DNA of 63,261 nt. It comes from an uncultured bacterium (GTDB lineage: Bacteria > Auribacterota > Erginobacteria > Erginobacterales > Erginobacteraceae). The notes below the pieces were generated by a model. The model was given only the letters and a program-made list of their open reading frames with translations. It did no database searches and was not told the origin of the DNA. Positions within the stretch are counted from its first letter, which is position 1. Each line of letters opens with the position of its first letter. Shown one piece after another: positions 18,531-33,666 of this stretch. The translations under genes were made by a program, and so were the position numbers. The stretch lies in NCBI GenBank assembly GCA_937885075.1, contig CAKZYZ010000333.1, forward strand, positions 1 to 63,261. The letters are read 5' to 3'.

Positions 18531-18534
18531 GTAG

Positions 18535-18698
18535 ACAGTGAGCAGTGAATAAACGGTAAGCAGTAAGCAGTTAGCGGTGAGCAGTGAATAAACGGTAAGC
18601 AGTTAGCAGTGAGCAGTAGGCCGCCGACGGCGACCTGGCGGCCACAGCTTACTGCTTACTGCTCACTGCTTACCGTTTATTCACTGCTCACTGCTTAC
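18535..18698. repeat. Family B word-palindrome (GTAAGCR/GTGAGCR heptamers)
   Basis: Left arm 18535-18617 with an internal ~42-nt duplication. Centre AGGCCGCCGACGGCGACCTGGCGGCCACA. Right arm 18648-18698, ending 9 nt before the rfbD ATG. Confidence 0.9.
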
Positions 18699-18707
18699 TA
18701 TATCTTC

Positions 18708-19583
18708 ATGCGAAGTAGAGATATATTGAATACAGAAAGAAAAATCTTGGTAATAGGAAATAATGGATTACTCGGGCAGGAGTTGATGGTCCGATTAGGC
18801 CCTCCGGGGCAGGTTACCGGGGCGGATCTCGATACCTGTGATATTACCAGGCCGGAGCAGATTGCGGCGGTGCTTAATTCTACCCGGCCGGATTGGGTAA
18901 TTAATTCCGCGGCCTATACCGATGTAGATGGGTGTGAGTCCAATTATGAGACAGCGAGGGCGATAAATGTTGTCGGAGCGGGGAATCTGGCCCGGGCCTG
19001 TCGGGATCGTGATATTGGACTCGTCCAGCTCAGCACGGACTTCATCTTCGATGGTAAGAAGGGGCGGGAATATAATGAGGATGATCAGCCCGCGCCACTC
19101 AGTGTTTACGGTGAGACTAAGTTAGAGGGGGAGCGGGAGGTGATAAAGGTAGGGGGAAGATATATTATTGTTCGGACATCCTGGCTTTTTGGAAAGGGCG
19201 GCAGAAATTTTCCGGATACTATTCTAAAAGCAGCCCGATCAAGCGATTCATTGCGGGTGGTCTCGGATCAGACCGGATCCCCGACTTACGCGGTCGATCT
19301 GGCGGACGCGATAGGAGAGTTAATTCGAAAAGACGCCAGCGGAGTTGTTCATGTAACCAATCGGGGAAGCTGCTCCTGGGCGGAATACGCGGATTTTGTT
19401 ATCAAGCTATCAGGGTTGGAGACAAAAATTATTCCGGTATCTTCGGAGGAGATGAAACGTCCCGCTGTCCGGCCGGGCTTCTCAGTTCTTTCTCTGAAAA
19501 AGTATGAAATGATAACCGGCAGGAAGACACGCCCCTGGCAGGACGCGGTCAAATCTTATTTTTCCTCCGGAAAAATAAAATAA
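18708..19583 (+). CDS. rfbD: dTDP-4-dehydrorhamnose reductase
   Basis: The ORF track starts at 18609, inside the right arm of a family-B palindrome. ATG 18708 gives MRSRDILNTERKILVIGNNGLLG. YGETK motif present. Confidence 0.9.
   Translation: MRSRDILNTERKILVIGNNGLLGQELMVRLGPPGQVTGADLDTCDITRPEQIAAVLNSTRPDWVINSAAYTDVDGCESNYETARAINVVGAGNLARACRDRDIGLVQLSTDFIFDGKKGREYNEDDQPAPLSVYGETKLEGEREVIKVGGRYIIVRTSWLFGKGGRNFPDTILKAARSSDSLRVVSDQTGSPTYAVDLADAIGELIRKDASGVVHVTNRGSCSWAEYADFVIKLSGLETKIIPVSSEEMKRPAVRPGFSVLSLKKYEMITGRKTRPWQDAVKSYFSSGKIK
19556..19578. repeat. AT-hairpin family copy inside the rfbD 3' end
   Basis: TTATTTTTCC-TCC-GGAAAAATAA. It encodes the last residues (YFSSGKI). Followed by TTGTGCAAGCA, as in the 16449 copy. 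Confidence 0.8.
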
Positions 19584-19658
19584 AGAAATTGTGCAAGCAC
19601 TGGAATAACGCCCGGGATACACTTTGAAGTAAGGCTATTGTTCAAAACAGTTAGCGCC

Positions 19659-19680
19659 ACAGGGCTAACTTATAGGAGGA
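19659..19680 (+). promoter_or_regulatory. Degenerate leader palindrome upstream of trm112
   Basis: AGTTAGCGCC-ACA-GGGCTAACT. Here it is followed by an AGGAGG SD. Confidence 0.6.
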
Positions 19681-19685
19681 ATACA

Positions 19686-19901
19686 ATGATTGATAAGGAA
19701 CTGTTGGAGATACTGGCCTGCCCGGCCTGCAAGTCAAGCCTGAAGTACGATGAAGAGAATCAGAAACTGATCTGTCTCGATGAGAATCGGGATAGCCGTG
19801 AGTTCAAGAGGGGTGAGGTCTGCGGCCTTATCTATTCCATTAAAGACGATATCCCGATAATGCTGATCGAAGAGGCTGAGGTACCATCGGCTGTGGAGTA
19901 A
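19686..19901 (+). CDS. Trm112 family protein
   Basis: AGGAGG SD then ATG 19686: MIDKELLEILACPACKSSLKYDEE.. The ORF-track start at 19638 lies in the leader palindrome. Confidence 0.75.
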   Translation: MIDKELLEILACPACKSSLKYDEENQKLICLDENRDSREFKRGEVCGLIYSIKDDIPIMLIEEAEVPSAVE

Positions 19902-19918
19902 TATCTTTGAAAAAATAT

Positions 19919-20042
19919 GCCACAAAGGCACGAAGACACTAAGAAAACTCAGGAAATAAGAAGATACGTAGTCATTGAACCTTCAATTCTTTTCTTTGTG
20001 TCTTAGTGTCTTCGTGGCAAAAAAAAGTTGCGAAGCTAAGTT
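19919..20042 (-). mobile_element. Family G MITE-like element, copy 1
   Basis: GCCACAAAGGCACGAAGACACTAAG .. CTTTGTGTCTTAGTGTCTTCGTGGC + AAAAAAAAGTTGCGAAGCTAAGTT. Ends 2 nt before the aroQ ATG. Confidence 0.75.
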
Positions 20043-20044
20043 CT

Positions 20045-20500
20045 ATGAAGAAGGAAGTAAAACATATTCTCGTCATCCACGGTCCGAACCTGCAGTTGCT
20101 GGGGGAGAGGGAGCCGGATATCTACGGTGCGGTTACACTGGAAGAGATCAATCTGAGGCTGAGAAAAGAAGCCGAAATCCTTGGAGTTGAACTCAGGATA
20201 GTCCAGTCAAACCATGAAGGGGAGATCGTTGACCTGATCGGTGATACCGGATCGTCTATCGACGCGATTCTGATTAATCCGGCCGCGTACACTCATACCA
20301 GTGTCGCCATCCGTGACGCGCTCTCCGCGGTGGCTGTTCCATCGGTAGAAGTTCATCTCTCCAATATTTACTCTCGGGAGGAGTTCCGTCGGAGTTCCCT
20401 GATCGCCCCTGTTGTCACCGGACAGGTTTCAGGTTTCGGACCGGAGAGTTACCTCCTCGGACTGAGGGCAGTCGTCGGGTTAGTCAGTGCCGATATATAG
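20045..20500 (+). CDS. aroQ: Type II 3-dehydroquinate dehydratase
   Basis: [37 protein letters not shown]. The ORF-track start at 20006 lies inside family-G element copy 1. Confidence 0.95.
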
Positions 20501-20596
20501 CCCCGATAAAGACTTCGGGGGGGGCCAGGACGATTATGGGCAGGAATATTTTTGACAGGACGATTCTGGGACAGGACGATTTAAGGCGGGACCATT
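20501..20596 (+). repeat. Family H direct word array preceded by a CCCCGA..TCGGGG hairpin
   Basis: CCCCGATAAAGACTTCGGGG, then CAGGACGATTATGGG / CAGGAATATTTTTGA / CAGGACGATTCTGGGA / CAGGACGATTTAAGG (period 15-16). Confidence 0.8.
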
Positions 20597-20620
20597 TTGA
20601 CGGATGATCCTATTATAATT

Positions 20621-21721
20621 ATGGAATTTGATCATCAGTCTCGTTTAAGAAAAGTTCGGAAGCGTCTGTCCCGACGCGGGCTTGATGGATTTCTGGTTGC
20701 CGGCAAGAAGAATATTTATTATTTATGCGGTTTCTCCGGTGAGGATAGTTGGCTCCTGGTAACCGCCGAGAGAGCTATATTAATCACCGATTTTCGTTTC
20801 CAGGAGCAGGCGGCCGCGAGTCTGCCTCCGGAATGTGAGGTATCTTTACGAACCCGGAAATCATTAAACGCTAAAGCGGCGGAACTCTGCCGGGAGCATT
20901 CTTTAAAGAAGATCGGATTTGAAGAGCGCCATTTGAGCTATGGTGAGTTTTATCGTCTGAAAAAATCTCTTCGGTCCAGAGAATTGATGCCGGTCGGAGA
21001 GTTGGTCGAAGAACTCCGTATGATTAAATATCCGGAAGAGATCGATCTCCTGCGCCGTTCCGCCCGAATGACTACCCGGGTGTTGTCTCTGGTTATGAAG
21101 GGGTTAACTCCGTCGCTGACCGAGCTTGATGTAGCCGGAAGAATAAATATTGCTTTATTGAGAGATGGAGGCAGATCGGCTTTTTCCCCGATTGTAGCGA
21201 CCGGTCTCCGCAGTTCTCAGCCGCACGCGGTTGCTTCGCATCATTCTATTGGAGGGGGAAATGTTCTATTAATAGATATGGGGGCGGAATCGGAGGCTTA
21301 TAACTCCGATATGACCAGGACATTTATTCTGGGAGATTTTCCCCGGAAATTCAAGACGATCTACCGGGCAGTTCTGGGAGCCCAGAAAAAGGCGATCCGG
21401 TTGATTCGGCCTGGAGTTACGGCATCCTCTATCGACGGAGTAGCAAGGAGATATCTGGAGGAGAGAGGTTATGGTAGCTATTTCGGGCATAGCCTGGGAC
21501 ATGGAGTTGGGCTTGAGGTTCATGAGAGACCGGTTATAAGTTCCCGTTCCCGGGACGTTATAAAGAAGGGGATGGTCTTTACTGTTGAACCCGGGGTCTA
21601 TATCCCGGGGTGGGGAGGGATCAGGATTGAGGATACGGTTATGGTGACCGAGGATGAATGTGAGATCCTGACCGAATATCCGAAGGATCTGGAGTCAATG
21701 GTTCAAAAAATGAAAGGCTGA
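20621..21721 (+). CDS. Xaa-Pro aminopeptidase (M24 family)
   Basis: Creatinase-like N-domain plus M24 metal ligands (DMGAE..YNSDMTRT, HSLGHGVGLEVHE, EPGVY, RIED). A TTG start at 20597 is also possible. Confidence 0.88.
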   Translation: MEFDHQSRLRKVRKRLSRRGLDGFLVAGKKNIYYLCGFSGEDSWLLVTAERAILITDFRFQEQAAASLPPECEVSLRTRKSLNAKAAELCREHSLKKIGFEERHLSYGEFYRLKKSLRSRELMPVGELVEELRMIKYPEEIDLLRRSARMTTRVLSLVMKGLTPSLTELDVAGRINIALLRDGGRSAFSPIVATGLRSSQPHAVASHHSIGGGNVLLIDMGAESEAYNSDMTRTFILGDFPRKFKTIYRAVLGAQKKAIRLIRPGVTASSIDGVARRYLEERGYGSYFGHSLGHGVGLEVHERPVISSRSRDVIKKGMVFTVEPGVYIPGWGGIRIEDTVMVTEDECEILTEYPKDLESMVQKMKG

Positions 21722-22245
21722 ACGTTCAACCAGCCTCCGCCAAGGCCCCGAAACAAGTTCGGGATGCAAGCACTATGGCGGGCAGTGCGTTCAACTTTCA
21801 ACCAGCCTTCGCTAAAGCTATGGCGGGCAAGGCGTTCAACATTCAACGACAGACAGATGATACAGATGAACATCCAACGTCGAACGCCGAACTTCGAACA
21901 TCGAACGTCGCAAGACAAAGCATTCCCCGGTATAAGAAGCTTAACTTTCAAACGTCTAAAGTCCAGCTTCACGAGATATTAATAATAAAAAGCGAATAAC
22001 GAACCGCAGAACATCGAATATCGAATGTCGAAGTAAAAGAAGCCTAGGCGAGGCAACTTCGACATTCGGAGTTCGGAGTTCGATATTCGAAATTCGACTC
22101 TAATAGGGGCCGAGGTGGGGGGAGTTTCAACCAGAAAAAGTGATAACTTTAAATCAGGACTTGAGCAAGATGAAGGATGCCTGCCGGGTAAAAGCGAATA
22201 ACTTTAGGCACTTTAGCGCACTTTAGGCACTTTCAACTTTCTAAA
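21712..22245. repeat. 538-bp mosaic of modules (A words, M1 x2, M3, G-rich, F arm)
   Basis: AAAGGCTGAAC contains the pepP stop. One M1 is split by M3 (21729-21795) and one M1 is intact (21801-21835). A words at 21868-21910. A small A palindrome at 22009-22096. GGGGCCGAGGTGGGGGG at 22106-22122. F arm at 22185-22240. Confidence 0.85.
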
Positions 22246-22259
22246 AAGGAGATTAAGTA

Positions 22260-23615
22260 ATGGTAAAGAGAATAATAGTCGGAGAATCCGGGGGGCCGAC
22301 CCCGGTCATCGATTGGGAAGTTGCCGGTGTGGTTGATACCGCTCAAAAGGGCGGGATTGAGGTTTATGGAATGTTCAACGGCCTGGAGGGTCTGCTCAAT
22401 GCCAACATTGAGGGGAATATCGTAGATCTTTCTAAGATCAACGCCATGTCCTTTACTTTTACCGGCCCCGGAGCTGGTCTGAGAACAACCCGGATGAAGC
22501 CGACTGCAGATCAGTATCGAAAGATTGCCCGTAACCTGGATGTGCTGGGTATTGATGGAGTAGTTTATATCGGCGGCAATGACAGCGCCGACCAGCTTCT
22601 GGGCTTAACCTCCGAGTGCGATGTCAGGGTTATCCACGCGATTAAGACAGTCGATAATGATCTCCCGGTTACCCATCATTGTCCTGGTTATGGTTCCGCC
22701 GCCCTCTACAATGCCATAGCTTTGAAGAACGTCCATAGCGATTTCTCCTCCTATCGAGTCTGGGGTAACTTTAAGAAAGATGGTCACATAGTTCAGGCAC
22801 TGAGCATTGTCCCGATCATTATCTATCAGGTGATGGGAAGAAAAGCCGGTTGGCTTGCACAAGGAACCGCTTTTGCCAAGGTAGATCCAAAAGGCGACAT
22901 CCGCCCGAACTACCCGCCCCATATCATCCTCAGCAAGGAGATCCTCTTTGACAAAGATGAATTCCTGGCCGAACTTGAAAGAGTCATAATCAGTCAGGGG
23001 GAAGCGGTAATTGTAGTCCAGGAAGATCTAACCGATAAAAAAACGGGGAAGGCAATCGCCGAGATATATTCCGATGAGATCGTAACTGACGCACACGGAA
23101 ATATCCAGCATGGTCGGGCGGGATCGTTTTCGCCCTCCATCTTTTTAGCCCAGATAATCAAGGAGGAATTGAAGATTAATAGTCTGCTGGGCCAGATTAA
23201 GGAAGCCGTTCTTACGCCTCAGCACATACAGAGGAGCAATATGGTCTCCAAACAGGATGCTTCTGAAGCTTACCTGGTTGGTTCCTCCAGTGTACGGGCG
23301 ATACTGGATGGAGAGGACCGGAAATCGGTTATCCTGGAAAAGAAAAAAACTAAGGTCTCCACCGGCCTGACCGATCTCTCCAATATCGCGGCCCGGGAGA
23401 AGGTGGTGCCGGATTATTACATAAACGGGTTGAACGGCCCGACCCAGGATTTTATTGACGAGTATATTTATCTGATCGGCGGTGCCGGTGCCATTCCTCA
23501 TTATTCTTATCGGAAGTTTGTGAGTGTGCCCATCCCGGACGAGATCAAGAAAGATCCCTATTTAAAGGGGAGCGATGAATATAAATGGCCGTTGAAAAAT
23601 GACATTATTCAATAA
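22260..23615 (+). CDS. Phosphofructokinase family enzyme with PPi-type signature residues
   Basis: IGGNDSA (Asp where ATP-PFKs have Gly in GGDGS) and IKTVDNDL (Lys before TxDND). These are residues classically linked to PPi dependence. AAGGAG SD. Confidence 0.82.
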   Translation: MVKRIIVGESGGPTPVIDWEVAGVVDTAQKGGIEVYGMFNGLEGLLNANIEGNIVDLSKINAMSFTFTGPGAGLRTTRMKPTADQYRKIARNLDVLGIDGVVYIGGNDSADQLLGLTSECDVRVIHAIKTVDNDLPVTHHCPGYGSAALYNAIALKNVHSDFSSYRVWGNFKKDGHIVQALSIVPIIIYQVMGRKAGWLAQGTAFAKVDPKGDIRPNYPPHIILSKEILFDKDEFLAELERVIISQGEAVIVVQEDLTDKKTGKAIAEIYSDEIVTDAHGNIQHGRAGSFSPSIFLAQIIKEELKINSLLGQIKEAVLTPQHIQRSNMVSKQDASEAYLVGSSSVRAILDGEDRKSVILEKKKTKVSTGLTDLSNIAAREKVVPDYYINGLNGPTQDFIDEYIYLIGGAGAIPHYSYRKFVSVPIPDEIKKDPYLKGSDEYKWPLKNDIIQ

Positions 23616-24241
23616 TGGACCACTCCTCTTTACCGGGAGAATTAGATAGGGGAATGAAGATGGAAAAACAGATTATTTTAGCTCTGGAAGAAGGCGCGCG
23701 GCTCGGGGAAAAGTTGAAGGAGTTGGCCCCTGAGATTGCTAAAGCGTCCCGGATGATTATTGACTGTCTCAGTTCCGGGGGGAAGGTGATGATCTGCGGC
23801 AATGGCGGGTCCGCCGCTGACTCCCAGCACATCGCCGCCGAGCTGGTGGGGCGTTTCAAGAGAGAGAGAAGAGCTCTGGCGGCAATAGCGCTCACTACCG
23901 ACAGTTCGATACTGACCTCACTGGCGAATGATTACTCCTTTGATCGAGTATTCAGCCGTCAGGTGGAAGCGCTGGGATCTTCGGGTGATATGTTGATCCT
24001 GATCTCCACCAGCGGGAACTCGGTTAATCTGGTTGAAGCCGCCCGGGTAGCTAAAGGGAGAGGGATAGTGACAATGGCTCTCTTAGGAAGAGATGGAGGC
24101 AAAGTTGTCGGAGAGGTGGATTTCTCAATTGTTGTCCCTTCGTCCGATACCGCTCGGATTCAGGAAGGGCATATGCTTATATATCATATTATCTGTGATC
24201 TGGTGGAGGAAGAGATGGCGGGGAAAGATAGTAATCAGTAA
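23615..24241 (+). CDS. gmhA: D-sedoheptulose-7-phosphate isomerase (SIS domain)
   Basis: ICGNGGSAADSQHIAAEL..ISTSGNS. The ATG overlaps the pfk stop (TAATG). Internal ATGs at 23654/23660 are alternative starts. Confidence 0.9.
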   Translation: MDHSSLPGELDRGMKMEKQIILALEEGARLGEKLKELAPEIAKASRMIIDCLSSGGKVMICGNGGSAADSQHIAAELVGRFKRERRALAAIALTTDSSILTSLANDYSFDRVFSRQVEALGSSGDMLILISTSGNSVNLVEAARVAKGRGIVTMALLGRDGGKVVGEVDFSIVVPSSDTARIQEGHMLIYHIICDLVEEEMAGKDSNQ

Positions 24242-24301
24242 ACAGTGATCAGTAATCAGTATGGCTATGCCTGTCCAACCGATTACTGCTTACTGATTAC
24301 C
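24229..24301. repeat. Family D word-palindrome (GTAATCA/GTGATCA/GTAAACA heptamers)
   Basis: The left arm ATAGTAATCAGTAAACAGTGATCAGTAATCAGT contains the gmhA stop. Centre ATGGCTATGCCTGTCCAA. Right arm CCGATTACTGCTTACTGATTACC. Confidence 0.9.
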
Positions 24302-24324
24302 ATATTTATTAATCGGGATACGAC

Positions 24325-24822
24325 ATGATAAGTCAAAAAATAATTGATCATGAAAATCTGACACCTATCCTTGACGATTTAAGGAAGGAAGGGAAGAAGA
24401 TCGTATTCACTAACGGTTGTTTTGATCTTCTTCATGTCGGGCATCTTCGTTATCTCAAGCAAGCTCGGGAGGAGGGAGATCTTCTGGTCCTGGGATTGAA
24501 CAGCGATCGTTCGGTTCGGGAGTTGAAGGGCGAGACCCGTCCGCTCTTACCCCAGGAGGAACGGGCCGAGATGATGGCGGCGCTCTCAATGATTGATTAT
24601 ATTGTAATCTTTGACGAGCGGACACCGCTTAATCTTATTAAAGAACTTCGCCCGGATATCCTGGTCAAGGGCGGTGATTGGAAGAGAGAGGATATAGTGG
24701 GAGGGAAAGAAGTGGAAGCCTCCGGCGGCAGGGTAGTCGTGGTCCCGGAGATCCCCGGAAGATCCACCAGCAATCTGATCGATGAGATTGTCCGGAGGTC
24801 AAAGAGCAAGGTAGAGATATAA
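24325..24822 (+). CDS. D-glycero-beta-D-manno-heptose-1-phosphate adenylyltransferase (RfaE domain II type)
   Basis: Cytidylyltransferase fold motif FTNGCFDLLHVGHLRYLKQAR, then ..DILVKGGDW. Confidence 0.88.
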   Translation: MISQKIIDHENLTPILDDLRKEGKKIVFTNGCFDLLHVGHLRYLKQAREEGDLLVLGLNSDRSVRELKGETRPLLPQEERAEMMAALSMIDYIVIFDERTPLNLIKELRPDILVKGGDWKREDIVGGKEVEASGGRVVVVPEIPGRSTSNLIDEIVRRSKSKVEI

Positions 24823-24837
24823 TCAGCGCCAACAACC

Positions 24838-24873
24838 GTCCGACAAGTCTGACTCGTCCGACCTGTCCGACAA
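24838..24873 (+). repeat. Family E-like nonamer array GTCCGACNN x4
   Basis: GTCCGACAA GTCTGACTC GTCCGACCT GTCCGACAA, between the heptose adenylyltransferase gene and thiC. Confidence 0.8.
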
Positions 24874-24890
24874 CCAAAAAAACAAAACTT

Positions 24891-26183
24891 ATGACTATAA
24901 TATCAGAAGCAAAGAAAGGAAACGTACCGGAACCGGTAGCAATAGTAGCCCGTGAGGAGGGTGTTCCTCCGGAAGATATTCTCAAAGGTCTGGTGGATGG
25001 AACAATTGTGGTTCCTTCTAACCGCGTACGCCCTATCGATCAGCCCTGTGGAATCGGTCAGGGGCTCAGGGTCAAGATCAACGCTAATCTGGGAACTTCA
25101 CAGCAGGAGATCGATTATGACGGAGAGATAGAGAAGCTGAAAGTCGCTATCTCCGCCGGAGCGGATACCGTAATGGACCTCTCGACCGGCGGCGATATCA
25201 ATTTGCTCCGGGAAAAAGTCCTGCTTACCTCCAGCGTGCCGGTCGGAACTGTTCCGATCTATGAAGCCGCGGTGAAAGCCAGCGAGGAGAAGGGAAAGAT
25301 AGTGGCAATGACCGGAGACGATATGCTGGCGGCGGTAGAGAATCAAGCCCGACAGGGGGTTGATTACATGACCATTCACGCCGGAGTTACTCTCCGGACC
25401 ATGGAGGTTCTGAAAAATTCTCCCAGGTTGCTCGGGGCGGTCAGCCGGGGAGGTTCATTTCTGCTGGAATGGATGATTGTCAACGGGAAGGAGAATCCGT
25501 TCTTTGAACGTTTTGATGAACTGCTCGATATAGTCCGGCGTTACGAGATTACTCTCAGTCTCGGCGATGGGATGCGTCCGGGATGTCTGGCCGATGCCAC
25601 GGATCGTCCCCAGATTCAGGAACTTATTTTTCTGGGAGAACTGGCGGCCCGCTGCCGGGAAGCTGAGGTCCAGGTGATGATCGAGGGGCCGGGGCATATC
25701 CCCCTCAACCAGATCGCCGAGAATATTCGGCTGGAGAAATCTCTCTGCCAGGGCGCTCCCTTCTATGTCCTGGGACCGCTGGTAACCGATGTCGCCCCGG
25801 GATATGACCATATCACCTGCGCCATCGGGGGAACTCTGGCCGCCTACCTGGGCGCGGATTTTCTCTGCTATGTTACTCCGTCCGAGCACCTGGGCCTGCC
25901 GTCAGTAGATGACGTAAAAGCCGGCGTGATAGCCACGCGGATCGCGGCTCATGCCGCTGATGTCGCCCGAGGCTTACCCGGTGCCCGTGATTGGGATGAC
26001 AGGATGTCGCGATTCCGCCAGGCCAGGGATTGGAAGGGGCAGGTGGCGACCGCGATTGATCCGGAGAAGGCAAGGTCGTATCTGGGAGAACTGGAAGATA
26101 AGGAAGATTACTGTTCGATGTGCAGTGAGTACTGCGCGATTAAAATTTTGGATGAGTACCTGGGTGGGGGCGGGAAGCAGTGA
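24891..26183 (+). CDS. thiC: Phosphomethylpyrimidine synthase ThiC
   Basis: 430 aa. ..MDLSTGGD..TIHAGV..GIVSRGG-like..C-terminal CSMCSEYC cluster. The last codons and stop lie in a family-B arm. Confidence 0.95.
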   Translation: MTIISEAKKGNVPEPVAIVAREEGVPPEDILKGLVDGTIVVPSNRVRPIDQPCGIGQGLRVKINANLGTSQQEIDYDGEIEKLKVAISAGADTVMDLSTGGDINLLREKVLLTSSVPVGTVPIYEAAVKASEEKGKIVAMTGDDMLAAVENQARQGVDYMTIHAGVTLRTMEVLKNSPRLLGAVSRGGSFLLEWMIVNGKENPFFERFDELLDIVRRYEITLSLGDGMRPGCLADATDRPQIQELIFLGELAARCREAEVQVMIEGPGHIPLNQIAENIRLEKSLCQGAPFYVLGPLVTDVAPGYDHITCAIGGTLAAYLGADFLCYVTPSEHLGLPSVDDVKAGVIATRIAAHAADVARGLPGARDWDDRMSRFRQARDWKGQVATAIDPEKARSYLGELEDKEDYCSMCSEYCAIKILDEYLGGGGKQ

Positions 26184-26301
26184 GCAGTTAGCAGTGAGCA
26201 GTAAGCAGTAAGCTGTGCCCCGGTCGGCGACCGCTTACCGCTTACTGTTTACCGCTTACAGTTTTACAGCTTACAGCTTACCGCTCACTGCTTACCGTTA
26301 C
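26175..26301. repeat. Family B word-palindrome
   Basis: The left arm AAGCAGTGAGCAGTTAGCAGTGAGCAGTAAGCAGTAAGC begins in the last two thiC codons. Centre TGTGCCCCGGTCGGCGAC. The right arm (26232-26301) is longer than the left. Confidence 0.9.
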
Positions 26302-26352
26302 TCCCATGGATATAATTTTAGATCATTGGATAAATATAATAGTAAGGAGGGT

Positions 26353-27258
26353 ATGAACATGTCAGTCCTCGTAGTAGGCTCGGTAGCATTTGATACGGTT
26401 AGGACTCCGTTTGGACATAAAGAAAAAATCCTGGGCGGTTCTGCCACATATTTTTCTTATTCGTGCAGTTTCTTCTCTCGGGTAAATCTGGTGGCGGTGG
26501 TGGGGGAGGACTTCCCCTCCGAGTACCGGGAACTCCTGATGGAGAGAGATATAAATCTTGATGGACTCCAGGTACGGGATGGAAAAACTTTTCACTGGGG
26601 AGGATCCTATCATTACGATATGAATGAGGCGGAGACTGAGTTTACTGATCTCAATGTTTTTGAAGATTTTCATCCCGAACTTCCGTACCACTATCGTTCC
26701 AGCGAATATGTCCTTCTGGCCAATATCGATCCTGATCTCCAATTGGAAGTATTGGATCAGATTGATAATCCCCGGCTGGTGGTAGGTGATACGATGAATC
26801 TCTGGATTGAGCTGAAGAAAGATGTGGTAGAGGATGTTATCAGAAAGCTGGATATTCTGATTGTCAATGATGCCGAGGCTCGGCAATTGACCTCTGAGGT
26901 CAGCCTGAAGAAAGCCGCCGACCAGCTCCTGGGACTGGGGTGTAAGTATGTGGTTATTAAAAAGGGTGAGCATGGGGCGCTCTTGTTTTCCCGGGATTAT
27001 ATATTCTCCGCCCCCGGCCTTCCCCTGGAGACGGTGGTTGATCCGACCGGAGCCGGAGACACATTCGCCGGAGGATTTATGGGCTATCTGGCTCGATCCG
27101 GGGATCTCACTCCGGAAGTATTACGGAGAGCCATGATCTACGGCAGTGTCATGGCATCGTTCAACGTAGAAGATTTTAGTTTAGAACGCTTGAAGAAATT
27201 ACAGAAAGATGATATAAAGACTCGTTTCCAAGAGTTTAAGGCACTTACTAATTTTTAA
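26353..27258 (+). CDS. PfkB family carbohydrate kinase
   Basis: AAGGAGG SD then ATG 26353 (MNMSVLVVGSVAFD). C-terminal DPTGAGDTFAGGF motif. The ORF-track start at 26215 lies in a palindrome arm. Confidence 0.85.
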   Translation: MNMSVLVVGSVAFDTVRTPFGHKEKILGGSATYFSYSCSFFSRVNLVAVVGEDFPSEYRELLMERDINLDGLQVRDGKTFHWGGSYHYDMNEAETEFTDLNVFEDFHPELPYHYRSSEYVLLANIDPDLQLEVLDQIDNPRLVVGDTMNLWIELKKDVVEDVIRKLDILIVNDAEARQLTSEVSLKKAADQLLGLGCKYVVIKKGEHGALLFSRDYIFSAPGLPLETVVDPTGAGDTFAGGFMGYLARSGDLTPEVLRRAMIYGSVMASFNVEDFSLERLKKLQKDDIKTRFQEFKALTNF

Positions 27259-27357
27259 AATTCCAGTAGATTCACTGAATGAAAATGATCAATAGTTGAC
27301 TTATGCATTGCAAGTTATAGTGCATATTGGTAATAATCACTGAAATATTTTCAAAAC

Positions 27358-27384
27358 TATTATTTTTTCGCAGAAAAAATAATA
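27358..27384. repeat. AT-hairpin family copy ending 1 nt before tRNA-Gly
   Basis: TATTATTTTTTC-GCA-GAAAAAATAATA. Confidence 0.85.
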
Positions 27385-27385
27385 T

Positions 27386-27456
27386 GCGGGTGTTGCTCAA
27401 TGGTAGAGCTCCAGCTTCCCAAGCTGGCCACGAGGGTTCGATTCCCTTCACCCGCT
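27386..27456 (+). tRNA. tRNA-Gly (anticodon CCC)
   Basis: 71-nt cloverleaf: acceptor GCGGGTG/CACCCGC, D stem GCTC/GAGC, anticodon arm CCAGC-TTCCCAA-GCTGG, T arm GAGGG-TTCGATT-CCCTT. No encoded CCA. Confidence 0.9.
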
Positions 27457-27580
27457 CTAAGAGAGCAAAAGGGTTTGAAAATTCTTTAGCCTTTACCATG
27501 GAGGGTTCTCAGTCACCCCGTGAACCGGGGTGCCTGATCCGGCACCCTCCGGGTGACGGAGATTCCCTTCACCCGCTCTA
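27440..27580 (+). repeat. 20-bp direct repeat of the tRNA-Gly 3' end (att-like)
   Basis: GATTCCCTTCACCCGCTCTA occurs at 27440-27459 (tRNA 3' end + 3 nt) and again at 27561-27580. The 101 nt between them contain GC hairpins (CACCCCG-TGAAC-CGGGGTG, or alternatively GGGTGCC-TGATCC-GGCACCC). Confidence 0.8.
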
Positions 27581-27715
27581 TATTTTCCTTCGGAAAATCT
27601 AGAGGTTTAAATTTTGGTTCTCAGGTTTTAGAATAAGGCTTCAGCTGTAGGTTGTTCCGAATCTAGAGGAGATGCATTTCTGGCGCACAATGAAAGTTTG
27701 TGGTCAGAGAAGCTC

Positions 27716-27850
27716 GGTGAAAGCGAACAACTTTAGGCACTTTAGCGCACTTTAGGCACTTATAACTTCTTTCTACTTTAGGCACTTTTCCGCCAGAGGC
27801 GGATCAGCCTCTGGCTGAAGCGCATTTCAAACTTTAGGCACTTATAACTT
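27716..27850. repeat. Family F array (right-arm orientation only) with an internal 9-bp perfect hairpin
   Basis: GGTGAAAGCGAACAACTTTAGGCACTTTAGCGCACTTTAGGCACTTATAACTTCTTTCT.. GCCAGAGGC-GGATCA-GCCTCTGGC .. AACTTTAGGCACTTATAACTT. Confidence 0.85.
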
Positions 27851-27866
27851 ATTTCTCCCCCCCCTC

Positions 27867-28379
27867 GTGACTAAGAATCAGAAAACATCGCGAAACAAAA
27901 TTCTCTGGGCGCCGTGGCGGATTAGATACATCCTTGATGAGAAGGAAGACGGATGTCTATTCTGTAATAAAGCCCAGAGTGATGATGATCTGAATAACCA
28001 TGTCATCGCCCGTAGTGAACATAGCTACGCTCTCCTCAATATATATCCGTATAATAGCGGCCATATGATGGTTGCCCCATATCGCCATACGGCGGAACTG
28101 GAGAATTTGCCGGCGGAGGAAGTTTCCGACCTGATGCTGCTGGTGCAACGCTCGATCAAAGCCCTGAAAGAGACAATGGAGCCGGAGGGGTTCAATGTCG
28201 GGCTTAATCTGGGACGTTCCGCCGGGGCGGGGGTGGTGGATCATCTGCATATTCATATTGTACCGCGCTGGCAGGGGGATACGAACTTCATGCCGGTTAT
28301 TTCTGATACAGATGTTGTGCCTCAATCCCTTGATGCTGCCTGTAGCCTCCTGCGGGAAGCTATGGATAAAAGAACTTAG
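27867..28379 (+). CDS. HIT family protein
   Basis: GTG start. Histidine triad HLHIHIVPRW. N-terminal WAPWRIRYI. The TAG stop lies inside family-G element copy 2. Confidence 0.85.
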   Translation: MTKNQKTSRNKILWAPWRIRYILDEKEDGCLFCNKAQSDDDLNNHVIARSEHSYALLNIYPYNSGHMMVAPYRHTAELENLPAEEVSDLMLLVQRSIKALKETMEPEGFNVGLNLGRSAGAGVVDHLHIHIVPRWQGDTNFMPVISDTDVVPQSLDAACSLLREAMDKRT

Positions 28380-28523
28380 CTTCGCAAGTTTTTTTGCCAC
28401 TAAGACACAAAGACACAAAGAAAATATTTCAAGATGCAATAACAACGTTTTTTATTCTTTCCTAAGGTTTTCTTAGTGTCTTTGTGCCTTTGTGGCAGAT
28501 TTATTGGAATTTCGGAGCAGGGA
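28373..28523 (+). mobile_element. Family G MITE-like element, copy 2
   Basis: AACTTAGCTTCGCAAGTTTTTTT + GCCACTAAGACACAAAGACACAAAG .. CTTAGTGTCTTTGTGCCTTTGTGGC + AGATTTATTGGAATTTCGGAGCAG. The interior is about 80% identical to copy 5. Confidence 0.8.
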
Positions 28524-28571
28524 GTTAGCTTAGCAATATTGTAGTTTGATCGCGGGAAAATCCATCAAACA

Positions 28572-28620
28572 GCGATAATTTCAGTGTACTTCCAATAAGT
28601 TAGCGCAAAGCGCTAACTTA
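28572..28620 (+). promoter_or_regulatory. Leader cassette copy upstream of the LysM promoter
   Basis: GCGATAATTTCAGTGTACTTCCAA + TAAGTTAGCGC-AAA-GCGCTAACTTA (perfect 11-bp stem). This is the only copy not adjacent to a start codon. Confidence 0.75.
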
Positions 28621-28624
28621 CAGC

Positions 28625-28653
28625 TTGACAGCGATTGTTTAGAACAATATCAT
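28625..28653 (+). promoter_or_regulatory. Candidate sigma-70 promoter of the LysM gene
   Basis: TTGACA (28625-28630), 17-nt spacer, TATCAT (28648-28653). Confidence 0.5.
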
Positions 28654-28697
28654 AACCACAAAATATGGAATTTGGATGTTTGATGAGGAGATTATTG

Positions 28698-29270
28698 ATG
28701 AAAGCTAATAAAAATAAATCATATTTTCAGGTTTTATTGTCTCTGGTTATGCTGAGTGCAATAATGCTTTGTTCGGTCTCTCCCGATCTGTACGCGAGAG
28801 ACCATTCAGCACCGGCGGTTGACCCGATCGTAAAAACTCGCGCGGTTGGAGAGGGGGGGAATGTCGATATGTTTCTTAACGATGTGGTTCCCGGTTGGCC
28901 CGGTTGGAGTCGTCGTTATTGGACGGATAAGGAGCTCTGGGGGAATCAGGGATATATTATCGGCGGACCTATGTCTCGTCTGACTGGCGAAGGGGCTATG
29001 GAAGCCGGCATCTCGGAGGAGATTACCGCTATCATCGAGACTCCGGAACTTCCGGAAGCCCCCCTGGAGAAGGTAGATCTGGATATCTCCGGGGAGAAGC
29101 CATCCACTCACCGGGTGGTTAAAGGAGAATGCCTCTGGTTCATAGCCGGATATGATGATGTCTATGCTAATCCCCTTCAATGGCCGTTGATATATAAAGC
29201 CAATAGAGAAAGAATAAAAAACCCGGATCTGATCTATCCCGGTCAGGTCTTTATCATTCCCCGTGACTGA
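28698..29270 (+). CDS. LysM domain-containing secreted protein
   Basis: GAGGAG SD 7 nt before ATG 28698. Signal-like MKANKNKSYFQVLLSLVMLSAIMLCS. C-terminal LysM (HRVVKGECLWFIAG..IYPGQVFIIP). The ORF-track start is 28665. Confidence 0.75.
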   Translation: MKANKNKSYFQVLLSLVMLSAIMLCSVSPDLYARDHSAPAVDPIVKTRAVGEGGNVDMFLNDVVPGWPGWSRRYWTDKELWGNQGYIIGGPMSRLTGEGAMEAGISEEITAIIETPELPEAPLEKVDLDISGEKPSTHRVVKGECLWFIAGYDDVYANPLQWPLIYKANRERIKNPDLIYPGQVFIIPRD

Positions 29271-29283
29271 GGCTCTGTTAAAA

Positions 29284-29580
29284 AGGAAAGTAATCAGTAA
29301 ACAGTGATCAGTAATCAGTAGAAAAGCAAATAAACAGTAATCAGTACCGAAGGAAAGTAATCAGTAAACAGTGGTCAGTAATCAGTACCGAAGGAAAGTG
29401 ATCAGTAATCAGTACAGCTACGCTTGGCCAACTGATCACCGATTACCGATTACCGATCACCGATTACCGATCACCGATCACCGATCACCAATCACCGAGT
29501 ACTGATTACTGATCACCGATTACTGATCACCAGTTACAGGTTACCTTTCAAATCGTCCTGTCCCAAAATCGTCTTGTCAG
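29284..29580. repeat. Largest family D word-palindrome (arms ~130 and ~115 nt) followed by reverse H words
   Basis: Left arm 29284-29414 (units GGAAAGTAATCAGTAAACAGTGRTCAGTAATCAGTACCGAA). Centre AGCTACGCTTGGCCAA. Right arm 29432-29546 (CCGATCACCGATTACC..). Then AAATCGTCCTGTCCCAAAATCGTCTTGTCAG. Confidence 0.9.
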
Positions 29581-29598
29581 AAATAACAAGCCCTCCAC

Positions 29599-30546
29599 GT
29601 GAAGACTACACTCAATTTTCGAAATCCCCAGCTGGTACGATCTCTCTTTGTCCGGGAAGAGAAAAACCTTCTCTTTCTGGGCGAGTCCCTCGGAGTTCAG
29701 GTCGTAGCAAGAGATAACTTTATCCGACTATCCGGTCCGGATGATGCCGTGGAACGGGCCGGGAGACTGCTCCGAGAACTGGGCGGGATCGTGGAATCCG
29801 GCCATACCCTGACCGGCCCCGAATATCACAGGATTATCAAAACTTACGCCGCGGATGAAAATTATTCAGTCGGCGAGGTCTATAGTGATAGGATTGAGGT
29901 TGCTTCGGAACGGGGGTATGTTCGTCCCCAGACCGTTAACCAGAAAAGATATGTGGATGCCCTCTGGAAGCATGAGTTGGTATTCTCTATCGGCCCGGCC
30001 GGAACCGGGAAGACCTATCTGGCAATGGCAATGGCGGTATCACATCTTCTGCAGGGTAAAGTGAAGCGACTGATTCTTACCCGTCCCGCTCTGGAGGCAG
30101 GGGAGAAATTGGGATTCTTACCGGGAGATCTCTATCAGAAGATATTTCCATACCTCCGTCCGCTCTATGACGCTCTCTATGATCTGATTGAAGGGGAACG
30201 GGTCAGGAGGTATGAGGAGGAGGGGATTATTGAAGTGGCGCCACTTGCCTTTATGAGAGGTCGAACTCTCAATAACGCGTTTATTATCCTGGATGAGGCT
30301 CAAAACACTACCCCGGAACAGATGAAGATGTTCCTGACCCGGATCGGGTTTAATTCCCGGGTTGTCATTACCGGGGATATTACCCAGGCCGACCTGCCTT
30401 CGAATCAGCGTTCGGGTTTGAATACGGCCCGTGAAGTTCTGAAGGATATTCCCGAGATACAATTTATATATCTTACCCGGGAAGACGTGCTTCGCCACCC
30501 CCTGGTGCAGAAAATTGTAACAGCTTATGAGAAGGCGGAGCAATAG
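29599..30546 (+). CDS. phoH: PhoH family ATPase
   Basis: GTG start. Walker A GPAGTGKTYLA, then ILDEAQN. Confidence 0.93.
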   Translation: MKTTLNFRNPQLVRSLFVREEKNLLFLGESLGVQVVARDNFIRLSGPDDAVERAGRLLRELGGIVESGHTLTGPEYHRIIKTYAADENYSVGEVYSDRIEVASERGYVRPQTVNQKRYVDALWKHELVFSIGPAGTGKTYLAMAMAVSHLLQGKVKRLILTRPALEAGEKLGFLPGDLYQKIFPYLRPLYDALYDLIEGERVRRYEEEGIIEVAPLAFMRGRTLNNAFIILDEAQNTTPEQMKMFLTRIGFNSRVVITGDITQADLPSNQRSGLNTAREVLKDIPEIQFIYLTREDVLRHPLVQKIVTAYEKAEQ

Positions 30547-30554
30547 TAAGAAAT

Positions 30555-30700
30555 ATCTGCATCAAAATGTGAATAAAATTGCCACAAAGGCACTAAGACA
30601 CTAAGGAATAAACAGGAAATAAGAAAAACGTAGTTATTACATCGGTAATTCTTTTATTTGTGTCTTTGTGACTTAGTGGCAAAAAATTGCGAAGCTAAAT
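30555..30700 (-). mobile_element. Family G MITE-like element, copy 3
   Basis: GCCACAAAGGCACTAAGACACTAAGG .. TTTGTGTCTTTGTGACTTAGTGGC + AAAAAATTGCGAAGCTAAAT. Ends 5 nt before the pgpH ATG. Confidence 0.75.
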
Positions 30701-30705
30701 GCAGA

Positions 30706-32958
30706 ATGATCAAGATATCATTTAAAAAGAAAGGGGAAGATGGCCGCCCCCGGAGCAAGAAGAGGAAGGTAGCCGAGGGGGGGAAGATCGCCCGGGCATT
30801 GGAGAGCGGTATCTCCGGGAGATGGGCATTGGGGGCGGGTATCTTCATCGCAAGCGTTTTAATCATCTCCTGGCGGGGTATGCCACTGGATATTCCAATT
30901 ATCGGCCAAATCTCCGAGCGTGATGTTGCGGCAACCTGTTCCTTTTCATTCCCTGACCGGATTAAGACCGAGCAGGCCCGGGATATAGCCGAGGACCATC
31001 AGCCGGTTGCCTATCTGGTTGTTCAGACCGTTTTAGAGGAGAAGGGAAATGCCTTGCGGCATTTCTTCCGCCGGTTATCGGGAGAATCAATACCCGTTAA
31101 GGCTCCTCCGCTGGATCTGGTATTAATCCCCCCGGATCGGCTTCTGCGAGATTATTTAAATACTGTTATTCCCCGGCCGTGGGAAGAAAAATTCCTTCAC
31201 ATCCTGGAAGACGCGTATCGCAATGGCATCCTTACCTCTGATATTAAGCGGACGCTCTCTAATACTCGCCAGGATGAGATCATGCTGGTTAATCCAGGAA
31301 CGAACGAAGATCGGATAATCTCGATCTCCGAAATCCCCGAACTCTCATCCTGCCGGGCTGCCGTGGCAAAGCAGGTGGAAGATAATATTGTGATGGGAGG
31401 GAGTGCTGTAGACGGACTGGGAGAAGTTATCCGGTGGTTCATCGAGCCCGACCTTGAATTTGATCTGGAGAAGACGGAAGCACTGAGATCGTCCGCCCGG
31501 AGCGATATCCCGGTTATTATGACTGAGGTAAGGAAAGGCGAGAAGATTATCCGCCAGGGGGAGGAGGTCCGGTCGATTCATATCCAGAAATTTCGTTCCT
31601 ATCAGGAGCAGCTCTTCCGGCTTGAACCGCCGATCTCATTACTGTATTATGCGCTTGGAAATGGTCTTCTGGTCGCTCTTTTATTTATAATTGCTATCTA
31701 CTATCTGGATCATTATCATCGGGAGATCAGCCGGAGTAATTCCCGGTTGCTTCTTATCTCAACAGTGATAGTTCTGGTTCTTCTCCTGACCCGTCTGCTC
31801 CGCCAGGCCTTCTGGCATCTTCCCCCCGGGATGATGGAGTTTACCCGCTATATATCGCCGGTGACAATTGGAACGATGCTGCTCTGCTTGCTGGTCAGTG
31901 TGCGGGTAGCGATATTTTTTACGCTGATTCTCTCTCTTCTCATCGGCCTTATTCTTGGGGGCGGACCAGGGTACATAGTTGTGGTGATTATCGGGTCAAT
32001 TGCCGGGATCTTCGGGCTGAGCGGTGCCCGGAGGAGGATTGACCTCTTTCGGGCCGGACTGATCTCGGCCGCGGCTGGTTTTCTGGCGGTGGCCGGACTG
32101 GGAGTTGCCGGAGGGTTAGGACTGACCGTATTTATTGTTCAGGGGATTGGTGCTGCTTCCGCCGGAATCCTCTCGGCATTTTTTACGCTGATTGCTCTGG
32201 GATTATTTGAGTCTCTCTTCCGGATCTCTTCGGATATTGGTCTTCTGGAACTCTCCGATCTCAATCATCCGCTTCTGCGCCGGTTGATGATCCGGGCGCC
32301 CGGGACATATCATCACGGCCTGATGGTGGCAACTCTGGCGGAAGGTGCCGCCGAAGAGATCGGTGCCAACGCGTTGCTGGCCAGGATCGGGGCATATTTT
32401 CATGATATCGGCAAGATCACGAAGCCGGAATATTTCTCTGAGAACGAGACCTCAGGATTTAGCCGGCATGATGCCCTGATCCCGAGCATGAGTAGTCTGA
32501 TTCTGATCGCCCATGTGAAGGAAGGGGTGGATCTGGCCCGCCAGTACAAACTGGATCGCCGGATTGTCGCTATTATCCAGCAGCATCACGGGACCAGTCT
32601 GATTTCCTGTTTTTATGACCGGGCCGGGAGGAATCACCAGCTGAAGTTTGATGTTATGGAAAAAGATTACCGGTATCCCGGTCCCCGGCCGAAGAGCCGG
32701 GAAGCGGCAATTGTCATGATGGCCGATGCCGTGGAAGCAGCCTCGACCTCCCTGGATCGGCGTACTCCCAGCCGGTTGGAATCTCTGGTTGAAAATATTA
32801 TTCGGGAGCGTTTTTCCGATGGACAGTTGGATGAATGCAGATTGACCATGGTGGATCTGAGAAAGATCGGAGAGAGCTTTGTCCGACTGCTATCGGCGAG
32901 ATATCATACCAGGGTTAAGTATCCGGAGGTGGGGAATGGGGGGGGGGGTAAGCAGTGA
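30706..32958 (+). CDS. pgpH: 7TM-HD membrane phosphohydrolase (PgpH/YqfF family)
   Basis: Extracellular N-domain, 7 TM helices, and a C-terminal HD domain (HHGLMVA..FHDIGK..HH). The ORF-track start at 30658 lies inside family-G copy 3. The last codons and stop lie in a family-B arm. Confidence 0.9.
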   Translation: MIKISFKKKGEDGRPRSKKRKVAEGGKIARALESGISGRWALGAGIFIASVLIISWRGMPLDIPIIGQISERDVAATCSFSFPDRIKTEQARDIAEDHQPVAYLVVQTVLEEKGNALRHFFRRLSGESIPVKAPPLDLVLIPPDRLLRDYLNTVIPRPWEEKFLHILEDAYRNGILTSDIKRTLSNTRQDEIMLVNPGTNEDRIISISEIPELSSCRAAVAKQVEDNIVMGGSAVDGLGEVIRWFIEPDLEFDLEKTEALRSSARSDIPVIMTEVRKGEKIIRQGEEVRSIHIQKFRSYQEQLFRLEPPISLLYYALGNGLLVALLFIIAIYYLDHYHREISRSNSRLLLISTVIVLVLLLTRLLRQAFWHLPPGMMEFTRYISPVTIGTMLLCLLVSVRVAIFFTLILSLLIGLILGGGPGYIVVVIIGSIAGIFGLSGARRRIDLFRAGLISAAAGFLAVAGLGVAGGLGLTVFIVQGIGAASAGILSAFFTLIALGLFESLFRISSDIGLLELSDLNHPLLRRLMIRAPGTYHHGLMVATLAEGAAEEIGANALLARIGAYFHDIGKITKPEYFSENETSGFSRHDALIPSMSSLILIAHVKEGVDLARQYKLDRRIVAIIQQHHGTSLISCFYDRAGRNHQLKFDVMEKDYRYPGPRPKSREAAIVMMADAVEAASTSLDRRTPSRLESLVENIIRERFSDGQLDECRLTMVDLRKIGESFVRLLSARYHTRVKYPEVGNGGGGKQ

Positions 32959-33085: not shown

Positions 33086-33117
33086 CCCTGTCCATACTTT
33101 CAACTATATACTATCCA

Positions 33118-33620: not shown

Positions 33621-33629
33621 ATTATTTAT

Positions 33630-33666
33630 TTGTATTTTGGGATTTGTGATTTGGAATTTTGGAATG
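33630..33666 (+). repeat. Family L: short ATTTKGR word array
   Basis: TTGTATTTTGGGATTTGTGATTTGGAATTTTGGAATG, between the dgkA stub and recO. Confidence 0.6.

Follow-up and report, generated by a model that had tools for sequence, protein, structure and literature searches.

Foldback repeats at gene ends and the C-terminal tails they encode in a 63-kb stretch of an Auribacterota-like genome

Cyanobacteria carry intergenic heptamer repeats known as short tandemly repeated repetitive (STRR) sequences. Among other heptamers, the stop codons within TAACTGA units limit their overlap with coding ends to at most 18 nt, and insertion at protein ends may be tolerated (MacGregor 2015, PMC4679880); the G-quadruplex (G4) repeats GGGNATC and GGGGA(C/T)T are found 3' of open reading frames (ORFs), mostly within 50 bp of the stop codon and on the coding strand, in a class that includes stop-overlapping repeats (Rehm et al. 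2015, PMC4692102). In Coxiella, copies of QMITE1/2, which are miniature inverted-repeat transposable elements, or MITEs, extend 1-50 bp into the 3' ends of functional genes; EnhC of the Dugway strain owes 33 C-terminal residues to such an element, and in another strain an indel has created a stop immediately ahead of it (PMC5896051). Here, a stretch of 63,261 nt from an uncultured bacterium (contig CAKZYZ010000333.1, referred to as the window) is described in which nearly all intergenic spacers contain tandem repeats, mostly as foldback pairs, and in which such repeats encode the last residues and stop codons of several genes, thiC and pgpH among them. The lineage is Auribacterota-like, within the Planctomycetota-Verrucomicrobiota-Chlamydiota (PVC) group, and the closest named ThiC matches are from Candidatus Auribacterota and Ca. 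Euphemobacter.

Repeat-derived ends of ThiC and PgpH

The core of ThiC, encoded on the plus strand at 24891-26183 and assigned to Pfam PF01964 in its homologues, ends with a Leu codon at 26160-26162 (..DEYL). The remaining 21 nt of the gene (26163-26183, plus strand), GGT GGG GGC GGG AAG CAG TGA, are translated as GGGGKQ and a stop (tails are given below up to the stop codon), and they also fall into heptamer phase, as GGTGGGG GCGGGAA GCAGTGA. They form the beginning of a hairpin whose plus-strand 5' arm (26163-26213) consists of GCAGTRA heptamers, here called family B. The arm is followed by a loop, TGTGCCCCGGTCGGCGAC (26214-26231, no strand assigned), and by a plus-strand 3' arm of GCTTACC-type heptamers (26232-26305) ending ..GTTACTCCC. 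Both arms were delimited with Tandem Repeats Finder (TRF) and by folding, the 5' arm also by its division into heptamers. The predicted RNA fold (-79.2 kcal/mol, z = -6.5) places the last codons of thiC in the base of the stem.

A second, unrelated gene ends in the same way. The ORF at 30658-32958 (plus strand) encodes a PgpH-like 7TM-HD phosphohydrolase, with a probable start at 30706 and, from Pfam and orthologue tails, a native end near ..KYPExNG; its product also terminates in GGGGKQ, encoded at 32938-32958 (plus strand) by GGG GGG GGG GGT AAG CAG TGA. The 5' arm of the hairpin here (32938-33016, plus strand) is made of family B heptamers in phase from a GGGAATG at 32932, and the 3' arm (33040-33088, plus strand) ends ..CTTACTCCC. 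Again the last codons are in the stem base of the predicted RNA fold (-94.3 kcal/mol, z = -8.1). In both hairpins the left arm is a tandem of GCAGTRA/GCGGTRA heptamers and the right arm its complement, and the 17-nt sequence GGSGGKAAGCAGTGAGC is found at 26169-26185 in thiC and at 32944-32960 in pgpH, with 0.00 matches expected in shuffled sequence. The two GGGGKQ tails are thus one reading frame through the same family B 5' end, a G-run leader followed by AAG CAG TGA, and they are alike because both ORFs enter it. The initial annotation had made this connection, and the common DNA, the shuffle expectation and the recurrence of the ThiC tail in an independent assembly (below) bear it out. The PgpH tail also includes an 11-nt poly-G run (32938-32948) just before the hairpin, which is likely to be slippage-prone; every frame closes within the array.

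Comparison with other genomes indicates where the native sequence stops. Homology of ThiC to proteins in the PDB ends at residue 422 of 430, and among 120 listed ThiC homologues the core ends ..EYL and none has the GGGGKQ end. An independent assembly from another sample, L172, is 99.8% identical to the window over 5.96 kb and has the same ThiC tail and hairpin, so the tail is not an assembly artefact. Among related loci (designated by L numbers), synteny with the window is kept over about 20 kb and the junctions are syntenic in more than 10 relatives. Those with a thiC stop codon outside the array have GK, KR, KG, KE, or GQ after the core. In L081 (95% ThiC identity) the tail is GK and a different element follows; in L170 (89%) it is GQ. 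In L169 (85%) the tail is KR, followed by 10 nt and then the orthologous family B hairpin, and in L003 (79%) it is KG, followed by 45 nt and the orthologous hairpin with an inverted loop. L004 (75%) has no element and a thiC-pfkB gap of just 14 nt. As in the window, the stop codon is within the hairpin in L083 (90%, tail DGGGE) and L084 (90%, tail NEEVSGKQ). The hairpin is orthologous in the window, L083, L084, L169, and L003, as judged from a common loop, TGCCCCGGCAGCGACCGC, and a right flank of CCCAYGGATAT; the window loop defined above has orthologous counterparts in L083 and L169, and in L003 it lies inverted. In L169 and L003 the native stop is intact and the orthologous hairpin follows it after 10 and 45 nt; the element is therefore older than the thiC fusions. 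The tails GGGGKQ, DGGGE, and NEEVSGKQ indicate that the thiC ORF has been joined to this hairpin at least three separate times. Long repeat-encoded tails are present in some other ThiC homologues (P0063-P0109, one of them source-named Thermodesulfobacteriota), which continue as GRTEGKTEGR.. for up to about 50 residues.

The PgpH orthologues have ..KYPExNG and then a variable hydrophilic tail; the window protein reads GNG and then GGGKQ. In L169, PgpH ends KNR and the TAA stop is the first unit of a family B array, and in L002 the pgpH stop overlaps the ybeY start (ATGA). At the junctions compared, orthologous tails part where the element begins, and GGGGKQ is missing from orthologues that no repeat abuts, as would be expected from the suggestion in the initial annotation that the original terminal residues were replaced.

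The arrays themselves change. The sole indel between the window and L172 over the 5.96 kb is one 7-nt unit (26263-26270) of the ThiC hairpin's right arm, missing in L172, which is direct evidence of slippage, and unit number per arm varies among the orthologous ThiC hairpins. In addition, the 20-nt loop of this hairpin (window 26214-26231) is exactly reverse-complemented in L003 (~11380-11400) relative to L169 (~6150-6170), with flanks that are not flipped; therefore, hairpin arms recombine. Turnover is fast: spacers are wholly different between 95%-identical relatives. The argB-argD spacer (58597-58875) differs entirely from positions 1-191 of L168, which has other families, next to an argD-argH region that is 99.8% identical (argD, 58876-60066, plus strand); this reflects either very fast spacer replacement or a chimeric join. 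Between ybeY and recO, a dgkA/PAP2 gene found in L001-L006 and L169 is reduced in the window to an 18-codon remnant, MLPHKVIDSFNAAVAGIV and a stop codon (33564-33620), which ends at a ATTTGGAATTT-type array arm and suggests an element-associated loss of the gene.

Repeat families and other gene ends

In the 10.8 kb of spacer in the window, TRF finds 69 intergenic arrays, with dominant periods of 7, 8, and 9 nt. Most are inverted pairs with arms of 35-80 nt. The heptamer families are GTAAGCA (family B), AGTAATC, and GAACGTC; other families, some with longer units, are ATCAGGAT, CACTAAGA (the "G" element), AAGTGCCTA (a 9-mer), and CAGGACGATT. There are also direct G-rich heptamer arrays (GGGGAGT, GGGAATA) and small AT hairpins of the form TTTTTCC-N4-GGAAAAA. 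The G element resembles a MITE: its left ends (28375, 34491, 55131) carry CTTAGCTTCGCAAC and its right ends (20040, 30699, 43855) the complement of this sequence, which agrees with the definition of MITEs as short (50-500 bp) multi-copy elements bounded by terminal inverted repeats. The 9-mer family has a 20-nt terminus, AGAAAGAAGTTATAAGTGCC, found on both strands. At the Rfam gathering threshold only a tRNA was matched in the window. Gene names at the junctions discussed here were confirmed by Pfam.

Array starts are concentrated at stop codons. Counting from the last base of the stop, TRF arrays begin between -12 and 0 nt at 10 of 52 gene 3' ends (3.6 expected, P ~0.002), in line with the enrichment that the initial annotation would predict, and between -12 and +25 nt at 23 of 52 (9.5 expected, P < 0.0002); overall, distances lie anywhere between -12 nt and beyond +100 nt. 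TAG is used at 18 of 46 array-adjacent stops vs. 23 of 141 others (window and nine related loci; Fisher P = 0.002). The gap from stop codon to array is zero or negative in 10 of 32 spacers. Between the array and the next start codon the median gap is 43.5 nt and, if a single 5-nt overlap is left aside, the gap is never shorter than about 11 nt. Several of these junctions overlap in at least some relatives: gmhA/rfaE2, phoH/pgpH, and pgpH/ybeY do so, glyQ either overlaps glyS or runs right up to it, and aroQ and pepP overlap or have one base between them.

Overlap with an array goes together with a diverged tail, in six of seven overlapped genes vs. three of 13 that are not overlapped (hand-scored; Fisher P = 0.017). 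C-termini without overlap are mostly conserved among the same genomes, for example those of Pfk, PfkB, LysM, RpsI, ArgC, ArgJ, and RfaE2. In all, elements affect about 12 or more of the 52 genes in the 63 kb. The junctions listed in the initial annotation (gmhA, the sigma factor, glyQ, pepP, 4HB, argG, argH, the molybdoenzyme, HIT, recO, and dnaK) are all present. Its statement that elements donate C-terminal codons is correct for thiC and pgpH and overstated for some others: RmlB, RmlA, and ArgB keep native tails although arrays begin at their stops, RecO and PepP receive essentially only the stop and zero to two residues, and in ArgG only KL and a stop are demonstrably element-derived. Unless stated otherwise, the gene-end elements in the next four paragraphs are on the plus strand.

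The AGTAATC-family hairpin at 24230-24301 begins with 12 nt (AGTAATCAGTAA, 24230-24241) that encode the SNQ end and stop of gmhA (tail DSNQ). Within the genus of the window, GmhA reads AGK and then DSNQ in the window itself, with IRI at the same point in L083 and IRT in L170; L169 has AVG and then EFR, and in each case a different element follows. In L001-L004 and L006 the end is ..E(E/Q/G)A(F/L)(A/S)x and overlaps the next start codon. A second hairpin of this family (42125-42224) includes the stop of a sigma-70 gene (42134-42136) in its leader, GGAAGGAAGTAATCAG (from 42125). The first unit of a CAGGACGATT-family array (35474-35533) encodes the QDD end and stop of glyQ (CAGGACGATTAG, 35476-35487), after which there are 338 nt of elements; GlyQ orthologues have a longer acidic tail, and their gene extends up to glyS or into it (L002 and L003 have ATGA). 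The pepP end, AAAGGCTGAACGTTCAACCAGCC (21713-21735), has its TGA (21719-21721) in AAAGGCTGAAC (from 21713), within the TGAAC terminus of the GAACGTC family. The PepP stop is the TGA of this terminus in the window, L083, L169, and L170, with different tails. Similarly, at the end of the 23S-IVP (four-helix-bundle, "4HB") gene (1785-1827), the TGA is in TGAACATCGAAC (from 1787), the start of a GAACATC array.

The arginine genes provide a second series of relatives. The argG end, ..RKKL, is encoded by a AGAAAGAAGTTATAAGTGCC terminus of the AAGTGCCTA 9-mer family (61384-61403); this 20-mer is identical on the other strand at 27755-27774 and has near-copies at 5401 and 27837, with 0.02 expected by chance. 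In the window and L165, ArgG reads LRK and then KL, straight into the AAGTTATAAGTGCC terminus. L167 has LRKDRK, a 24-nt spacer, and then the AAGTTATAAGTGCC terminus of the same element. Because it is downstream of an intact native stop there, the element predates the fusion. In a metagenome scan for argG, only relatives of at most 68% identity and without synteny value were found, with tails that were generally short and basic. The argH end, GGGGGGATAAAGACCGAACGTTCAAC.. (63002-63047), consists of a G-rich leader and then an array. After a common RWRKKL, ArgH continues as GG in the window, GDRGKQV in L165, and DNKR in L167, each followed by a different element; the stop is in a 9-mer-family terminus in L165 and in GATGAACGTCGAAC in L167. 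The window tail is better explained by a 1-nt change in a G-run relative to L165. At argB, the first unit of a G-rich heptamer array (TAGGGAA TGGGGAG.., 58593-58628) holds the TAG stop, and the native tail EIVN is retained.

At the molybdoenzyme large-subunit gene, the TAA (51634-51636) is in GGGATAAA, the degenerate first unit of an 8-mer (GGNNATCA) hairpin at 51630-51785. A 9-mer, GGGATAAAG, is present at the ends of both argH and this gene; by a rough estimate, a match of such a length could be due to chance, and it was not counted as independent evidence. The HIT and recO stops are both within the CTTAGCTTCGCAAC terminus of G elements: the HIT TAG (28377-28379) in ACTTAGCTTCGCAA, at a left terminus located at 28371-28420, and the recO TAA (34493-34495) in TTTAACTTCGCAAC, at one located at 34488-34535. 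After REAM, the HIT tail is DKRT in the window vs. ARMK in L081. The first base of an 8-mer (ATCAGGAT) hairpin (7885-7992) directly follows the dnaK stop.

Two AT hairpins also encode tails: ATTATTTTTCCTGTGGAAAAATAAT (16422-16446) the IIFPVEK end of the gene at 15396-16445, and TTATTTTTCCTCCGGAAAAATAAAATAA (19556-19583) the ..FSSGKIK end of rmlD. The L169 GlyQ tail, IFPEEK, comes from an AT hairpin of the 16422-16446 type. Such hairpins (TTATTTTTCC-N4-GGAAAAATAA) are repeatedly followed by TTGTGCAAGCATTGA...ACAGGCAGATTATAA (16422-16500, 19556-19640, 13990-14050, and the L169 glyQ end), a combination that looks like a mobile terminator- or promoter-like cassette. In L002, a (GGTTCAG)n array that contains no stop codon provides an RmlD-like protein with a tail of at least 22 residues (GSGFRVQ..).

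Elements also approach the 5' ends of genes. The longest-ORF starts (GTG/TTG) of six genes are inside element right arms (18609, 20006, 26215, 30658, 34585, 56392), and orthologue alignments of these six begin 10-48 residues later. Automatic annotation would therefore over-extend these N-termini. A different, conserved hairpin, AGTTAGCGCC-GNRA-GGCGCTAACTT, is found 0-6 nt before several start codons without an obvious Shine-Dalgarno sequence, those of rplM and rpsI included (14125-14157, 15360-15395, 48480-48511, 54085-54117, 54595-54628; also in L165, L083, and L170). It has no Rfam match at the gathering threshold and may be a translation-initiation or 5'-end element.

Origin of the rewritten tails

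Any explanation has to accommodate element-derived tails, turnover, slippage, and compact ancestral junctions, all of which the comparisons above demonstrate. They probably result from foldback repeats that fill available space and are filtered by selection, without targeting of stop codons. Several families, some with defined MITE-like inverted termini, saturate the intergenic DNA of a genome whose junctions were ancestrally compact, either overlapping (ATGA/GTGA) or separated by less than 15 nt. Mobile, slippage-prone elements would fill all dispensable space from the last codon that the upstream gene needs to the ribosome-binding region of the following one; because the ancestral junctions were overlapping or so short, an insertion would have to land at a stop codon. 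The unit arrays change by slippage and their arms recombine; in the order of events that we infer, insertions or small deletions at the array edge, often mediated by microhomologies, would repeatedly eliminate the native stop and carry the ORF into the element, with selection acting as the filter. At the junctions of gmhA (GGGAAA), argG (AGAAAG), thiC, and pgpH (G-runs in both), the native end and the element leader have short purine-rich or G-rich stretches in common. Most 5' arms and termini offer a TAA, TGA, or TAG, and GTAAGCA-type arrays a stop in every frame within 21 nt. Because element ends carry stops, fused ORFs are closed after at most about seven codons, and because they close so soon the fusions would be tolerated and retained.

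Several points weigh against this explanation. No clean empty/filled site pair was found among the spacers compared, and no target-site duplication was seen, so that any single element may have arisen by insertion or by growth in situ. The rpsI-argC spacer, aligned between the window and L165, which has no G element there, has no clean breakpoints, and a target-site duplication was not found. No transposase or RAYT (the Y1 transposase that accompanies REP repeats) was detected among 20 window proteins scanned with Pfam (63 kb only). A hairpin of some family is present in the thiC-pfkB spacer of most relatives examined, which hints at a function rather than pure junk. The excess of TAG, together with G-rich arrays that start exactly at a TAG with the native tail kept (ArgB, RmlA), could represent real stop-codon anchoring. 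Finally, the statistics cover one 63-kb window and about ten related loci, rather than whole genomes.

The persistence of a thiC-pfkB hairpin through changes of family also bears on the possibility that the hairpins begin at stop codons because they are selected there, whether they stabilise 3' ends, are cut by RNase III, serve as non-canonical terminators, or modulate termination and translation in the way described for REPs near stop codons, with the tails as a side effect. Unit families persist across genomes down to 75-79% ThiC identity, the stems are very stable (z = -6.5, -8.1), and REPs (repetitive extragenic palindromes), mostly located downstream of ORFs, are thought to act as RNA hairpins (PMC3733652). 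A selected RNA function is therefore possible for the hairpins; as the source of the tails it is doubtful, since distances to the stop vary from -12 to more than +100 nt and element-poor relatives such as L004 have no hairpins at the same junctions. No U-runs follow the hairpins, which are absent from the 29 terminator-like sites found in a scan of 17000-36900. Canonical intrinsic terminators were rejected as an identity for them: the last bases are ..CTCCCATGG in the ThiC hairpin and ..CTCCCTGTCC in that of PgpH, without U-runs, and no tandem-arm hairpin is among the 29 sites.

Growth in place is an unlikely origin for the elements. On this reading, a heptamer-like gene-end sequence already containing the stop would have been extended by local slippage, with no mobile arrival. 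In L003, the (GGGAATA)n array at the end of pgpH is continuous with the codons GGG AAC GGG GAA TAG, which encode a GNGE motif common to L002 and L003; in the window, heptamer phase is unbroken from coding sequence into the arrays of both thiC and pgpH, and the argJ-argB AT hairpin resembles a duplication-inversion of GGAAAAAATA, which is single in L165. One-unit slippage has been observed directly. Against this, units, leaders, and non-repetitive termini of 14-20 nt recur at many unlinked loci, so that copying between loci is required, and slippage alone leaves the inverted pairing of arms unexplained.

The initial annotation left the choice between targeting of stop codons and remodelling of native 3' ends. 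Remodelling is well supported by the orthologue tails; targeting is unneeded and has no direct support. It would call for an enzyme with a stop-containing target (TA, TAA, or YTAR-type) or one that recognizes gene 3' ends, with the element bringing its own stop, and is considered rather improbable. The enrichment of array starts at stops and the over-representation of TAG agree with it, as do the TGAAC, CTTAG, and GTTATAA termini, each containing a stop used by several independent genes, and two of the three intact G-element left termini are exactly on stops. For G-rich arrays at TAG and for the TGAAC and CTTAG termini, targeting may yet be involved. Elsewhere, the thiC and argG relatives with the same element 10-45 nt past an intact native stop (L169, L003, L167) argue that fusion is secondary. 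Many copies are far from stops, such as the one at 55131 and those within the spacers 5050-5943 and 10062-10696, and right ends are similarly crowded against start codons. No target-site duplication was seen, and no transposase was found among the window proteins scanned.

A clade-wide maintained system, in which an enzyme or RNA-binding protein recognizes heptamer families anchored at stop codons, is quite improbable. If it existed, overlapping, translationally coupled genes would be split, with new stops supplied and a long hairpin placed at the terminating ribosome, intercistronic expression in operons would be rewired, and the C-termini of housekeeping proteins would be continuously diversified. 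That the shared tails are native sequence, chance, or an assembly artefact is scarcely credible and refuted by the shuffle expectation of 0.00, the zero of 120 listed ThiC homologues, the L172 assembly, and the conserved synteny across junctions in more than 10 relatives, even though ThiC, ArgG, and PgpH generally have hydrophilic C-terminal tails that vary.

Overall, the comparisons of orthologues show that repeat elements can rewrite the last two to eight residues of core enzymes (ThiC, ArgG, ArgH, GlyQ, GmhA, PgpH), and that relatives with just 5-10% divergence in the orthologous proteins do not have the same changes. The series from native stop, to nearby element, to fused ORF documents how compact junctions are pried apart, and repeat-borne stop codons make this survivable. 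Annotators can recognize these elements by odd C-terminal peptides that recur identically in proteins unrelated to each other, by contigs that break where genes end, and by false starts inside arrays.

Comparison with described systems

REP and REPIN sequences (Di Nocera et al. 2013, PMC3733652; Bertels and Rainey 2011, PMC3116915) are high-copy intergenic palindromes, mostly 3' of ORFs and between co-directional or convergent genes, and inverted pairs of them fold into larger hairpins. The elements described here are likewise intergenic, enriched at 3' ends, and present in high copy. A REP is an imperfect palindrome of 20-40 bp that has GTAG or CGTC as an unpaired tag at one end, in contrast to the 35-80-nt tandem-unit arms found here, where CGTC (GAACGTC) or GTAG (GGGAGTAGGG) can be inside units and is never a single terminal tag. 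Several unrelated unit families coexist in the window, unlike REPs, and overlaps contribute up to six or seven codons rather than just a stop.

Bacterial MITEs (QMITE, PMC5896051; the enterobacterial RU and Correia elements, PMC2229807, PMC2759123) are similar in being short and non-autonomous, with inverted termini. The arms in the window differ in being internally tandem-repetitive and in changing by unit slippage, and their density is far higher; no target-site duplication or parent insertion sequence was identified in the 63 kb.

The described heptamer repeats (PMC4679880, PMC4692102) are also dispersed, intergenic tandem 7-mers with indels in 7-nt steps. By-eye comparison puts the units found here 1-2 nt from the named families (TCAGTAA vs. 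TCAGTTA; GGGGAGT/GGGAATA vs. GGGGACT/GGGAATC). No definition, whether of a REP, a MITE, or a named heptamer family, fully fits these elements. REP ends that supply TAG stops, overlaps of Coxiella MITEs with gene ends, and stop-limited heptamer overlaps are already published, and the advance is not one of principle. It is one of degree, architecture, and lineage; comparative evidence for tail replacement, absent from the two heptamer papers, is present here.

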